DNA of 64,000 nt from Eledone cirrhosa (lineage: Eukaryota): NCBI GenBank assembly GCA_964016885.1, contig OZ024742.1:113956001-114020000 (forward strand), written 5' to 3'. The first letter of the stretch is position 1, and every line of letters begins with the position of its first letter. The translations under genes were made by a program, and so were the position numbers. Positions 6,431 through 57,066 of the stretch are shown here, in pieces. The notes below the pieces were generated by a model, which saw only the letters and a list, made by a program, of their open reading frames with translations, made no database searches and had not been told where the DNA came from.

Positions 6431-6611
6431 TTGGTGTTTTGTATGTATATATATCTATCTTTATATATATATATATATATATATGTAGATAAATCTACAA
6501 AAATAAACGGTAGTGTCCAATCCGTATGTAGAACTCCATGTCATCCAAATATCATGAAAAGAGAAGATGTATTCAACAATTTTTCGATGAAAAACACAGG
6601 AAAACATAATC

Positions 6612-6995
6612 AAAATAAATTAATAAAAATAATGAATAAAAACAAAGAAACAGTTCCTTATATTAAAAAATTCATCATTTTACGATCGTTTCTAGGATAT
6701 ATATGTGTGTGTTGGTATGTATATCATATATATCTATGTACATTTTTTACAAACTATAAGAGGGAATATACATACCTATACATGTATATGCTCTCTTCAG
6801 AAATTATTTCTGAAGACAGCATATATATGTGTAGGTATGTATATTCCCTCTGATAGTTTGTAAAAATGTTACATAGATCTATATGATATCCATACCAACA
6901 CAAACATATATATCCTAGAAACGATCGTAAAATGATGAATTTTTTAATATAAGGAACTGTCTCTTTGTTTTTATTCATTATGTTTATTAATTTAT
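6612..6995. repeat. Near-perfect ~190-bp-arm palindrome (head-to-head duplication) lying between (TA)n tracts
   Basis: Centre is ttcagaaat-t-atttctgaa at ~6805. Mirrored ORFs 6425+ and 7053- give near-identical peptides. Confidence 0.92.
6806..6933 (+). ncRNA. Type I hammerhead ribozyme with long stem II (mirror copy on minus strand at 6677-6804)
   Basis: attt-CTGAAGA-[~100-nt imperfect hairpin]-GAAAC-gatc-GTA-aaat. Stem I is attt/aaat and the stem III loop is palindromic. Confidence 0.65.
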
Positions 6996-7076
6996 ATATA
7001 TATATATATATATATATATATATATATATATATATATATATATATAATTGCAAACTTGACTGTCACCACATATTAT

Positions 7077-7113
7077 GAACCTGAAAATTGCGAAAGCATG
7101 AACGTACTTGTTC
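7077..7113 (+). ncRNA. Degenerate minimal hammerhead in a dispersed repeat (7048-7300; second copy inverted at 60510-60695)
   Basis: gaac-CTGAAAA-ttgc gaaa gcat-GAAC-gtac-TT-gttc. The other copy has CTGAAGA...GAGA, so the consensus is canonical. Confidence 0.55.
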
Positions 7114-7339
7114 AATTAACACTTATAACTTAATATTCTCCTATACTATTTCATTCGATAAAATAAAGTACCAGTAATGCACTGGGTAATTGCTGGCCTT
7201 GTGCCTAAAGTAGAAACAATTATAATACCATTATAAATTTTAAAAGATTGTAAATAAAACGAGTAAATCAGACAAAGTTGGAATTCCTCTTATTAATATA
7301 AACTTGTATACACAATCATACACAGCCGTGTATATTTAT

Positions 7340-7725
7340 CTCTCTCTCTCTCTCTCTCTCTCACTCTCTCTCTCTCTCTCTCTCTCTCTCTCTCTATATA
7401 TATATATATATATATATATATATATATATATATATATATATATACATATATATATATATATATATATATATATATATATATATATATATATATATATATA
7501 TATATATATATATCTAAAGTGTATATACATATAAACTAGGTAAAGCCATATATATATATATATATATATATATATATATGTGTGTGTGTGTGTGTGTGTG
7601 TGTGTGTGTGTGTGTGTATGTGTGTGTGTGTTTGTGTGTGTGTGTATGTGTGTGTGTTTGTGTGTGTGGGTGTGTGTGTGTGTGTGTGTGTGTGTGTGTG
7701 TGTGTGTGTGTGTGTTTGTGTGTGT
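7340..7725. repeat. Compound (TC)n/(TA)n/(TG)n microsatellites
   Basis: Direct reading. Confidence 0.97.
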
Positions 7726-7875
7726 TTGGCAACTATTCCCGGTGTGGCTCAATGACGAATTAATTAAATAATTTTTCCTACATGATCCCCGCCAGAAACG
7801 AATTCAAATAGGCTAAGAATCATCACGTAGCTAGTGATAAAGGCAGAAAGTTTGTGATTGATATAACATTCTTGC

Positions 7876-10107
7876 CAGAATTAATTGACCTGCGTGCATA
7901 TTATTTTATCTTTTTTATGTTTTGCGATGACCTCCAGTTCCCGTTTGGTGACGGTGTGAGATTTCTCTTCGTGAGACTGCTAGAATTTCAAATTTGGAGG
8001 TCACTCTAACACAGAAGGGTACCATCGCTGAATGTTAATATCGGTAGGGCTTTTTTATATCGATATTGTTGGGCAACCTCTCATGTTTTATAAGTGCCCA
8101 CCTGCATATATTCCTATGGACTATGTGTAGTCTTCTATATAACCTGGACATTATTTTCCCAACTTGTAGAAAACTTATATTAAAACGATCGTTTGGAAAG
8201 AGGTATGTATTTAATTATATAAAATTGTTATATAAAATAATACAACTGGTTATCCGCAAAATAATTATAGTTAGCACCTCAAACGTATAATTGGGATTAT
8301 ACCAAGGTATATTCTAATGTTTGTTGACTGAGACGGAAGTCGGTCGGAGTATTGCTTAAAGATTTCTCTGTTAATGTATTAAATATTATACTCTTGAATT
8401 GGCCAGAGATGAACATTTCCAGATATTTTTAGTTATGACATTCTTTATTTATTCTTTGTATGAATTATTGACTGTTTTTCTTGTATCTTGTCTCTGTTTT
8501 TAGCCTGAGAAAATACCTATATGAATGTATAAATAATACATGCATATATTTAATTTTTTTAAATCCAATTGAGTTCTTCGCATATGGGTAAAATTATTTA
8601 CAGAATTAATTGACCTGCGTGCATAATATTTTATCTTTTTTTTATGTTTTGCGATGACCTCCAGTTCCCGCTTGGTGACGGTGTGAGATTTCTCTTTGTG
8701 AGACTGCTAGGCTTCTATATAACCTGGACATTATTTTCCCAACTTGTAGAAAACTTATATTAAAACGATCGTTTGGAAAGAGGTATGTATTTAATTATGT
8801 GTTATATAAAATAATACAACTGGTTATCCGCAAAATAATTATAGTTAGCACCTCAAACGTATAATTGGGATTATACCAAGGTATATCCTAATGTTTGTTG
8901 AGTGAGACGGAAGTCGGTCGGAGTATTGCTTAAAGATTTCTCTGTTAATGTATTAAATATTATACTCTTGAATTGGCCAGAGATGAACATTTCCAGATAT
9001 TTTTAGTTATGACATTCTTTATTTATTCTTTGTATGAATTATTGACTGTTTTTCTTGTATCTTGTCTCTGTTTTTAGCCTGAGAAAATACCTATATGAAT
9101 GTATAAATAATACATGCATATATTTAATTTTTTTAAATCCAATTGAGTTCTTCGCATATGGGTAAAATTATTTACAGAATTAATTGACCTGCGTGCATAA
9201 TATTTTATCTTTTTTTTATGTTTTGCGATGACCTCCAGTTCCCGCTTGGTGACGGTGTGAGATTTCTCTTTGTGAGACTGCTAGGCTTCTATATAACCTG
9301 GACATTATTTTCCCAACTTGTAGAAAACTTATATTAAAACGATCGTTTGGAAAGAGGTATGTATTTAATTATGTGTTATATAAAATAATACAACTGGTTA
9401 TCCGCAAAATAATTATAGTTAGCACCTCAAACGTATAATTGGGATTATACCAAGGTATATCCTAATGTTTGTTGAGTGAGACGGAAGTCGGTCGGAGTAT
9501 TGCTTAAAGATTTCTCTGTTAATGTATTAAATATTATACTCTTGAATTGGCCAGAGATGAACATTTCCAGATATTTTTAGTTATGACATTCTTTATTTAT
9601 TCTTTGTATGAATTATTGATTGTTTTTCTTGTATCTTGTCTCTGTTTTTAGCCTGAGAAAATACCTATATGAATGTATAAATAATACATGCATATATTTA
9701 ATTTTTTTAAATCCAATTGAGTTCTTCGCACATGGGTAACATTATTTACAGAATTAATTGACCTGCGTGCATAATATTTTATCTTTTTTTATGTTTTGCG
9801 ATGACCTCCAGTTCCCGCTTGGTGACGGTGTGAGATTTCTCTTTGTGAGACTGCTAGGCTTCTCTATATCCTGGACATTATTTTCCCAACTTGTAGAAAA
9901 CTTATATTAAAACGATCGTTTGGAAAGAGGTATGTATTTAATTATGTGTTATATAAAATAATACAACTGGCTATCCGCAAAATACTTATAGTTAGCACCC
10001 CAAACGTATAATTGGGATTATACTAAGGTATATCCTAATGTTTGTTGAGAGAGACGGAAGTTGGTCGGAGTATTGCTTAAAGATTTCTCTGTTAATGTAT
10101 TAAATAT
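7876..10107 (+). repeat. Tandem array of ~574-bp units (about 3.6 copies; first copy ~150 bp longer)
   Basis: cagaattaattgacctgcgtgc recurs at 7876, 8601, 9175 and 9749. The array ends in a (TA)n tract. Confidence 0.95.
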
Positions 10108-10166
10108 ATATATATATATATATAAATATATATATAAGTGGTTACACAACAGTTAGTTCACCAAAC

Positions 10167-55370: not shown

Positions 55371-55504
55371 TCTTCGATATATCCTCTATATTTTGTACTG
55401 TCTACATTCAAAACATTTTCGCTATGTATACAAACATACATACATACATCTACAAATATATATATATATATATATATATATATATATATATATATATATA
55501 TATA

Positions 55505-56110
55505 TGGTGGCTGCCAACTCGTTTTCGAGTTCGGCCACTAATTTATATCCATGTAGGAGAACCCCTGCCGATGCGCTGAACGAGAGTGACTTTTTAGTCC
55601 ACCCAGCGACTTGAAAACTGTGGTACAAACACTACACTTGTGACAATTAATGACACATAGTGCTGGGCCCATGGTACCATGTGACGACAAGTGCAGAGAT
55701 CTCCAGATATAAAGCAATGCTTGTGCCGTGAAGCTTTTATAGTGAGCAAAGGCACTGCAAAAAGCCAGTCCCACACCCTTAACCAAGATGATATTTAATA
55801 AAAAGAAGAGCAAGTCAACATCATTGGATACCATCACGATTGCAGGTGTTATATCAGAGTTTTCCTTCTCCTAGAATTATGCCTTGACAAACGCAAAGGG
55901 GTTATCTCTCCCGGTGATTTTGGATGGACATTGACTCTTAAGAGGTCCTTTGCCCTTTGACAAGTTTTGGTTTTAGTCCTGTAGGATGTCCAAAGCCACC
56001 TTCCTCGCCAAGGAAACTTGGTGGGGGTTACCAGTTTAGACGCCAACGACCCGACCATCAGACAGGTTGTACTGGGATACATGTTACCAGTAGCACCAAC
56101 TGGTTACCTG
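55505..56110 (+). mobile_element. Probable RTE-type LINE 5' UTR fragment between TA tracts
   Basis: GC-richer block with ttaagaggtcc...ctgtaggatgtcca.agccaccttcc...aacttggtggggg.taccagtttagacgccaacg. This resembles RTE 5' ends from memory and is unverified. Confidence 0.4.
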
Positions 56111-56114
56111 ACAT

Positions 56115-56550
56115 ATACACACACACACACACATATATATATATATATATATATATAAATATATATATATATATATATATATATATATATATATATATAT
56201 ATATATATATACATATATATACATACATATATATATAAACATATATATATACACACATATATACATACATATACATATATATACATATATATATATATAT
56301 ACATATATGTTTATATATACATATACACATATATACACACACACATATATATATATATATATATATATATATATATATATATATATATATATATATATAT
56401 ATACACATACATATACATACACATATATATACATATATACATATATATATATGTATATATACATATATATACATATACATATATATATACACACACTTAT
56501 ATATACACACATATATATATATATATATATATATATATATATATATATAT
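56115..56550. repeat. Compound (TA)n/(CA)n microsatellite
   Basis: Direct reading. Confidence 0.97.
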
Positions 56551-56552
56551 AC

Positions 56553-56682
56553 GTTATTCCGGGTTGAATCGGAGGTAACCACAGTAAGTAAGGAACTCAA
56601 TACAGTGCAGAGTATAAATGTTTTAATATAGATGAGATTCTACAGGACTAGAAATGTTTCATTCTTTAGACATCATCAGGAT
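56553..56682 (-). mobile_element. PLE pLTR end with hammerhead core
   Basis: Homologous to 33207-33348. Reverse complement reads CTGATGA-tgtctaaagaat-GAAACA...TGTA. Confidence 0.6.
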
Positions 56683-56683
56683 T

Positions 56684-57066
56684 ACGTATATACTTACCTT
56701 ATGCATATTAACTCACCGTTAATATGCATAAGGTAAGTATATACGTTCAACAATCTGGCAAGAAGGTATACGTTGCTGACGATATCTAATAAGCTTGAAA
56801 CTAGTACAGCGTTCCTTTGTCAGTGTTGAACAAATGAGCAACGATGGTTGCTAGACACTACGGTTTAATACGGGATGTTTGTTTACAAACACACCGAGCA
56901 TTATAATAAATGTTCGGTGAATCCATACGTACATATATGTATGTGTGCATGTATACATACTACTGTACGTCTGTATACATATATGTATGTACGTGTACAT
57001 ACTTTTATTTAAGTAACAGCCGTACTAAGTGTGGGAAATGAAATTTCGTTTCATTTCTTCCGTTTA
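56684..57066 (+). repeat. Further copy of the 48460-type hammerhead repeat; HHR at 56771-56811
   Basis: cgttg-CTGACGA-tatctaataagctt-GAAAC-ta-GTA-cagcg. The copy ends in (TA)n. Confidence 0.82.

Follow-up and report, generated by a model that had tools for sequence, protein, structure and literature searches.

How do elements that encode their own reverse transcriptase (RT) and repeats that are non-coding come to be inserted in the same shape? The question is raised by a window of 64,000 nucleotides (nt) of Eledone cirrhosa, the whole stretch analysed here (OZ024742.1, 113,956,001-114,020,000), in which Penelope-like elements (PLEs) and non-coding tandem repeats with hammerhead ribozyme motifs both lie as diverging arms beside (TA)n microsatellites. 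We mapped the repeats of the window and then sampled each family across the 3.0 Gb genome (loci fetched from it are named by L and a number). The original prediction of one insertion architecture common to coding PLEs and non-coding hammerhead repeats was borne out, as the two share the same arms, fixed ends and TA flanks. With a probability of about 75 %, we read these structures as back-to-back insertions of PLEs and retrozymes in (TA)n, made by the same Penelope enzyme priming from both ends of the break.

The most informative feature, absent from the original prediction, is a pair of unequal fixed ends. Every sampled family ends at one of two fixed 3′ positions, which we call E1 and E2. 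E2 lies 59-176 nt downstream of E1 and the intervening stretch is the PLE 'tail' (69, 59, 62, 161, about 130, 68, 176 and 75 nt in eight families). By eye, no sequence around E1 and E2 was common to the families beyond AT-richness. A masked self-comparison combined with annotation gave the layout of the window, where eight sites had been proposed to carry the hammerhead on the minus strand in the left arm and on the plus strand in the right one, with TA at or near the outer ends. This holds for six of them, which are single-family back-to-back pairs in that orientation with both outer ends abutting (TA)n (6487-6993, 10138-11526, 11618-28358, 35784-38987, 39093-40428 and 44930-47132), but not for 48460-49175, which is broken, or for 56553-57066, which consists of two families. 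At all six clean sites the tail is present on one arm and absent from the other. The proposed limits 6612, 35980 and 45100 omitted this one-sided tail and were too short, the true starts being 6487, 35784 and 44930. The arms of the eight sites are as follows.

6487-6806, minus strand: site 1, left arm, 3′ end of the coding PLE family F6; E2 with a tail of ~130 nt, in (TA)n
6803-6993, plus strand: site 1, right arm, F6; E1 in (TA)n
10138-11086, minus strand: site 2, left arm, PLE-A with a GIY-YIG fragment at 10381-10917; E1 in (TA)n
11085-11526, plus strand: site 2, right arm, PLE-A; E2 with a 68-nt tail, in (TA)n
11618-24147, minus strand: site 3, left arm, 26.8 units of the 468-nt repeat R468; E2 with a 69-nt tail, in (TA)n
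24161-28358, plus strand: site 3, right arm, 9.0 units of R468; E1 in (TA)n
35784-38698, minus strand: site 4, left arm, broken PLE-B with a decayed hammerhead; E2 in (TA)n
38699-38987, plus strand: site 4, right arm, PLE-B; E1 in (TA)n
39093-39959, minus strand: site 5, left arm, 1.25 units of the repeat F39; E2 with a 62-nt tail
39959-40428, plus strand: site 5, right arm, F39; E1 in (TA)n
44930-46841, minus strand: site 6, left arm, long 3′ region of the coding PLE family F45; E2 with a 161-nt tail, in (TA)n
46842-47132, plus strand: site 6, right arm, F45; E1 in (TA)n
48459-48880, minus strand: site 7, left arm, one unit of the repeat F56; E1 in (TA)n
48908-49174, plus strand: site 7, right arm, broken, with no fixed end, a non-TA flank and a decayed hammerhead
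56553-56683, minus strand: site 8, left arm, hammerhead family F33 (131 nt); its own E2 in (TA)n
56684-57064, plus strand: site 8, right part, a 29-nt inverted piece (56684-56712) and then a 354-nt F56 arm; F56 E2 in (TA)n

The pairing of ends was counted in 179 distinct loci of seven families, with overlapping duplicates and the window's own copies removed; an older PLE-B set (29 loci), PLE-C (19) and F33 (19) stayed outside this count. The 179 loci are the best matches to the queries, and the PLE loci L190-L193 were chosen because both strands matched. We scored 88 loci as back-to-back, 2 as apparently head-on, 81 as single-armed and 8 as open; as predicted, the orientation of the arms is thus not random with respect to the hammerhead strand. 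Both head-on exceptions are two insertions facing each other across a TA tract. The single-armed class is inflated, some references being shorter than the element, and in six of its loci 5-11 nt of the opposite end are present (475 control tests gave 2 such matches by chance). In 70 pairs both ends lie at fixed sites, and 65 of these combine E1 with E2 (P 2e-14), namely 35/35 coding and 30/35 non-coding pairs. The non-coding loci are back-to-back in 47 of 74 cases. When duplicates were kept, the fetched loci showed 163 direct back-to-back joins within a family, one between families, and no direct head-on join.

For R468 we also used a sample ordered by position, not selected by shape, and counted by hand. 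The exact pattern of the R468 E2 end followed by TA matched 1,952 times genome-wide and a stricter E1 pattern matched 298 times, both with no match for the control (reversed in the case of E2). Reading these numbers as an E2:E1 ratio was dropped, as the patterns are unequal in strictness. The opposite end of the first 30 E2 matches was E1 in 25, E2 in none, single in three, other in one and open in one. The first 56 of the 298 E1 matches represent 54 insertions, and their opposite end was E2 of the same family in 40, E2 of another family in two, E1 in two, single in six, other in one and open in three; four insertions are common to the E2 and E1 sets.

An artefact of assembly, or of fold-back in the library, is next to impossible as the source of the inverted arms. 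The arms of the 468-nt array are 99 % identical, which would suit such an origin, but those of the other five clean sites are just 82-97 % identical, the unequal ends recur at family-specific positions on many contigs, and a short interspersed element (SINE)-like control repeat shows no inversions. The junction of site 2 is overlain by assembled contigs of one of four runs, none of them shown to bridge it.

Regarding the flanks, (TA)n follows 222 of the 245 fixed 3′ ends, against one of the 28 3′ ends of the control repeat. As background, TA stands at 4.3 % of window positions drawn at random and at 8.9 % of those in the loci, so the predicted enrichment above local background was confirmed. 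Target-site duplications are unreadable within (TA)n; in a single case (L038) a repeated non-TA word flanks both sides. These flanks bear on whether a different enzyme, a long interspersed element (LINE) or host repair polymerases acting at fragile TA breaks, captures the RNAs and resembles PLEs by convergence. Long frames of other retroelement types were seen by eye in the fetched loci, and Cervera and de la Pena named LINEs as possible drivers (PMC7229834). However, the SINE-like control has no inverted arm at any of its 28 loci besides lacking the TA preference, no poly(A) tail was seen at the R468 ends, and PLEs are described as the sole elements with two fixed start sites of internal position (PMC11167929). 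We consider a different enzyme very unlikely.

As for the coding elements, sites 2 (PLE-A) and 4 (PLE-B) are PLEs. Sites 6612-6995 and 45100-47132 had been taken as non-coding, but longer F6 and F45 copies elsewhere carry an upstream GIY-YIG region, which identifies the two sites as truncated 3′ parts of coding PLEs. A young relative of the site 4 element retains an 808-codon open frame in eight of 20 fetched PLE loci; one copy of this family is 95.0-99.8 % identical to 18 others, and (TA)n is present at 32 of the family's 32 fixed ends. An intact open reading frame (ORF) of 794 amino acids (aa) at L179 has RT followed by a C-terminal GIY-YIG domain in a single frame, with the motifs RWK and DKT, the CxCX5C linker, CxxC and CxH. 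The DKT type occurs in 59 of 70 relatives and DKG in none of the 70. In its endonuclease, examined by eye in the translation, the CCHH motif is absent and one cysteine lies within the GIY-YIG core. Pfam, NCBIfam and PDB sequence searches with the 794-aa ORF returned no significant match, and a GIY-YIG Pfam match was present in four of 34 aligned proteins, the query itself not among them. Its predicted structure (predicted local distance difference test, pLDDT, 83.4) has telomerases as the best fold matches (E 8.7e-10). In the broken PLE-B of site 4 both RT and GIY-YIG are fragmented, and the pieces are 47-86 % identical to the intact ORF. Judged by their motifs, the coding elements are PLEs with the signature of the Hydra clade; a Neptune-like assignment of the 794-aa ORF was dropped once the motifs fitted Hydra.

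A fifth coding family, PLE-C, which the original prediction did not contain, is represented in the window by one 3′ part.

33540 (approximate)-35752, plus strand: 3′ part of PLE-C with a GIY-YIG fragment at 33835-34389; E2 in (TA)n

An intact PLE-C frame was not found in the four loci checked. The PLE-C 3′ end (35572-35752 and many loci) is very frequent as back-to-back mini-insertions of ~200 nt, composed of an E1 arm of ~60 nt and an E2 arm of ~140 nt, with both arms beginning near one position, unlike in R468. In L136, L139 and L300 a SINE-like sequence lies directly 5′ of the F6 hammerhead region, possibly a SINE-PLE chimera family.

Three non-coding tandem-repeat families were established, R468 (468 nt), F56 (422 nt) and F39 (622 nt, or about 660 nt with its internal TA tract at 39714-39779). 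We dropped a division of 39090-40430 into two insertions, as the inner TA tract is part of the F39 unit. All three are head-to-tail repeats with one predicted type I hammerhead per unit. The longest stop-free stretches are 65, 53 and 70 aa in R468, F56 and F39, and none of the three gave a significant tblastn match to the PLE ORF. The proposal of several unrelated ribozyme RNAs needs correction, as these three are the only non-coding families established and two of them, R468 and F56, are relatives (67 % over 213 nt). In L043:2917-4082 and in L422, R468 changes into F56-like units inside one arm, which suggests template switching or recombination.

Could these arrays be satellites that arose from PLE ends and grew in situ through unequal crossing-over, with no retrotransposition of their own? 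This has been put forward as one route (10.64898/2026.07.22.740005), and the 27-unit arm of site 3 carries recurrent variants with periods of ~3-6 units, none of them present in the 9-unit arm; judging from these variants, it probably grew locally after insertion. Local expansion accounts for the size of a few arrays but not for their origin. At least 1,952 junctions are dispersed in the genome, with the same two fixed ends and an inversion point that differs from locus to locus, and no similarity to a parent PLE was found in the analysed library. A satellite origin is, in our opinion, even less probable than a different enzyme.

A motif scan recovered an intact hammerhead core with a palindromic helix III at six of the eight sites (1, 2, 3, 5, the minus arm of 7 and the plus arm of 8). 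Two shuffled sequences gave 3 and 4 matches with scores up to 5.7, whereas the real matches reached 9.0. The scan did not pick up the decayed or variant motifs of sites 4 and 6, which were recognised by eye. Among the 150 of 232 Rfam matches listed, the hammerhead was HH9, in the 468-nt array only, at no more than 37.7 bits against a gathering score of 52. The predicted hammerheads outside the 468-nt array are given below.

6681-6800, minus strand, and 6810-6929, plus strand: site 1, the left one with a 101-nt helix II region
10171-10200, minus strand, and 11391-11421, plus strand: site 2, from the scan
39441-39507, minus strand, and 40081-40147, plus strand: site 5, from the scan, with one core change in the minus arm and, in the plus arm, G as the cleavage-site nucleotide
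48674-48704, minus strand: site 7, from the scan
56776-56806, plus strand: site 8, from the scan
35572-35657, plus strand: PLE-C, from the scan

A hammerhead-like motif of F45, found by eye at 45180-45200 and 47050-47090, has a variant core in both arms. The flanks of the fetched loci L031-L448 contain several further hammerhead families, which have a palindromic helix III and core halves 12-116 nt apart.

The inner junctions show how the two arms relate to each other. Among the coding pairs, 16 of 35 have an E1 arm that extends further 5′ than the E2 arm and a tail on the E2 arm only, so neither arm was copied from the other. In the coding pairs, seven E2 arms lie within the tail. The arms of R468 start more than 20 nt apart at 58 of 71 junctions. 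Extra bases are present at 27 of the 71, and 13 extra nt separate the arms of site 3 in the window; among the 44 R468 junctions without extra bases, 19 show microhomology of at least 2 nt, compared with 18 % at random. A single priming event, with the inverted arm arising by fold-back of the cDNA or by self-priming on antisense RNA (Arkhipova et al. 2013), would predict near-palindromic junctions. Such junctions, with arm starts within 20 nt, do occur in 13 of 71 cases where 6.2 are expected, short fold-back pieces are found at some junctions, and palindromic junctions have been reported (PMC3846280). The second arm would then have to be contained in the first, which fails in the 16 of 35 coding pairs; moreover, the other fixed site on the second arm in 65 of 70 pairs is left unexplained and the remaining 58 of 71 junctions are not palindromic. 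We therefore disfavour fold-back as a general route and regard it as unlikely, if less so than the satellite or a different enzyme.

Variants within the arrays bear on the template. A low-divergence filter was passed by 55 of 88 loci. Among these, a variant is fixed in every unit in 21 of 29 arrays of at least three units, giving 19 haplotypes, and of 13 informative loci 12 have a variant common to the two arms (1.1 on average and at most 5 after shuffling). Three arrays (L037, L144 and L145) alternate variants with period 2. Both patterns are consistent with monomer or dimer circles, and homogeneous linear multimers would fit as well. A-to-I editing was tried as an RNA footprint and not used, as 21 A>G against 14 T>C distinct variants is too weak. 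Among the sequencing runs listed for R468 none was marked as RNA, six runs being of unstated type (four studies). We lean towards a monomer circle released by the hammerhead as the template of the repeats.

The competing template is a linear multimeric read-through transcript, copied by the same enzyme with the same priming, the hammerhead being dispensable for insertion. In its favour, hammerhead mutants left in vitro insertion unaffected and unprocessed RNA was the main substrate (PMC11167929), some fixed haplotypes are common to several loci, and the period-2 variants require at least a dimer template. Yet a dimer circle also accounts for period 2, and the presence of 19 different fixed haplotypes in 29 arrays implies that sequence has passed time and again through a single unit. 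A two-sided compensatory change leaves helix II paired in 15 loci, and R468 and F56 are strongly self-paired when folded as circles (z -10.9 and -9.6 relative to shuffles). We hold a linear template to be a real but rather unlikely option, about half as credible as the monomer circle.

Taken as insertions primed from both break ends, the pairs would form as follows. GIY-YIG would cut both strands in (TA)n, one DNA 3′ end would prime at E1 and the other at E2, and both cDNAs would extend inwards and stop at unrelated points. They would then be joined with little microhomology or few extra bases, followed by mutual fill-in. For the repeats, the released monomer circle would be read round several times. 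In the left, minus arm the top strand would pass from TA directly into cDNA, and on the right the bottom strand would do likewise; given this strand layout at both ends, we infer that each DNA end acted as a primer. TA would be left on both sides of each insertion, and later insertions could land alongside. Judged by the shared footprint, mobilisation of the non-coding repeats by the PLE enzyme is likely.

Several observations weigh against this interpretation. Five of the 70 pairs break the E1+E2 rule, 18 of the 88 back-to-back loci have one end off the fixed sites, and the 81 of 179 single-armed loci and the excess of near-palindromic R468 junctions (13/71, as fold-back predicts) belong here too. 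Fixed variants may have been inherited from homogeneous source arrays, some haplotypes are common to several loci, and the circular fold of F39 is no better than shuffles (z -0.3). The pairing as E1+E2 does not follow from the behaviour of PAc, a PLE protein assayed in vitro, which showed no strand difference in start site (PMC11167929). Between the non-coding units and the PLE stretches of the analysed library there was no DNA similarity at E 0.01, hence no partner PLE was identified. Insertions that join two families could point to one, and the two with PLE-C and R468, both E1+E2, count in favour of the interpretation: in L033 a PLE-C arm (E1) is joined to an R468 arm (E2), L391 is the reverse with PLE-C at E2 and R468 at E1, and in L422 an E2 of F56 is paired with an E1 of R468. 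These chimeras are also explicable as deletions between neighbouring insertions, which leaves PLE-C as a candidate partner of R468. L402 and site 8 of the window pair like ends, contrary to the rule.

The original prediction also proposed nested islands. The insertions instead form side-by-side chains with common TA tracts. The relevant tracts, and an older pair absent from that prediction, are these.

11527-11617, 35753-35783 and 38988-39092: TA-rich tracts, by annotation, each common to two neighbouring insertions
32897-33191: older back-to-back pair between TA tracts, arms 73 % identical, the right one longer

Other repeats of the window also end at TA. A 574-nt tandem repeat (7864-10099, ~3.4 units and a fragment) ends in (TA)n beside PLE-A; its relatives elsewhere share the same end, and by eye its hammerhead-like palindrome is decayed. 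Tandem dimers with periods of 584 and 484 nt (42493-43521 and 47410-48283) end at TA-rich tracts, the former with hammerhead-like cores on the minus strand. A likely DNA transposon, which we take to be hAT-like, is represented at 29189-30713 by broken frames that include a Spin-doc zinc finger (PF18658, E 1.2e-7), and 63200-63637 holds a PIF1 helicase fragment (PF21530, E 4.7e-12), possibly derived from a Helitron.

How much of this was known? The Hydra clade of PLEs with a C-terminal endonuclease (EN+), which targets (TA)n, was defined by Craig et al. 2021 (PMC8557442), where Hydra-1_Obim is catalogued with a (TA)n preference. As far as that source describes the clade, our elements share with it the RWK, DKT, CxCX5C, CxxC and CxH motifs, one ORF with RT before GIY-YIG, a hammerhead near the 3′ end, (TA)n targets, partial tandems, an inverted 5′-truncated copy and a tail often on one end only. 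They differ in having a unit of ~3.5 kb instead of <3 kb, tails of 68-176 nt instead of 30-40, and a long helix II region in many hammerheads (PMC8557442). The tail asymmetry, counted here as a near-rule, goes beyond that description (PMC8557442). Opposite-strand hammerhead pairs in PLEs were already reported (PMC4209133). In Penelope elements of Adineta vaga, head-to-head inverted pseudo-long terminal repeats (pLTRs) are the commonest form, with the tail on one, and one case of pLTR-driven mobilisation in trans is described (Arkhipova et al. 2013, PMC3846280). The arms were ascribed there to self-priming on an antisense template, and short target-site duplications are visible there, whereas here they are hidden by (TA)n (PMC3846280).

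The closest biochemical parallel is the PAc protein (Poseidon, Anolis), which in vitro cuts and extends both strands of an AT-rich target, is predicted to dimerise, and has two internal start sites, one at each end of the tail (Frangieh et al. 2024, PMC11167929). The two start sites and the AT-rich target are as in our elements, which are known from sequence; PAc belongs to a different clade and starts without strand difference (PMC11167929). The available text of PMC11167929 reports neither a trans-mobilised non-coding RNA nor paired starts within one insertion. Our non-coding repeats resemble metazoan non-LTR retrozymes in their head-to-tail units, a type I hammerhead in each, low GC, dispersal and co-occurrence with PLEs (PMC7229834; 10.64898/2026.07.22.740005). 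PLEs have been proposed to drive retrozymes, with circles as template, on the grounds of co-occurrence and pLTR similarity (PMC7229834; 10.64898/2026.07.22.740005), whereas here the link comes from the footprint, and a pLTR parent was not found in the library. In the accessible parts of these two sources, inverted arms, fixed unequal ends and (TA)n targeting of retrozymes are not described, and the main text of the octopus repeat annotation PMC13282606, as available, does not contain the word 'ribozyme'. Inverted arms, the one-sided tail, (TA)n targeting and a proposed PLE-retrozyme link are therefore already known. Within the literature searched, which covered few subscription papers, we found neither the PLE footprint on retrozymes nor the E1+E2 rule. 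What is new is a countable E1+E2 rule, together with footprint evidence for the proposed PLE-retrozyme link.

In LINE-1 twin priming, both target strands prime cDNA and an inversion joined at microhomology results; the arms are free of overlap, and the internal site at which the second primer anneals varies. In the insertions studied here, in contrast, neither start varies, and the overlap of the arms can reach kilobases.

The spread of retrozymes in animals and the inverted, one-tailed insertions of PLEs are both described as open questions in the literature available to us. This genome offers thousands of young insertions in a defined target, ORFs that are intact by nature and start sites that are both mapped, and non-coding repeats with a footprint called PLE-specific make the PLE-retrozyme link testable with the existing in vitro assay. 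Genome writing, too, would have an interest in an enzyme able to turn a small RNA circle into multi-kilobase copies within a simple repeat. Tentatively, and with more doubt than confidence, we suggest a further step: a Penelope ribonucleoprotein (RNP), perhaps a dimer, may hold the two start sites in register, one for each end of the (TA)n break, by recognising a structural signal. Unrelated ribozyme circles could in this way become multi-kilobase concatemers, and two RNAs could meet in one insertion. If true, such a coupled RNP would explain the inverted-arm-plus-tail shape of all PLEs and how animal retrozymes move.

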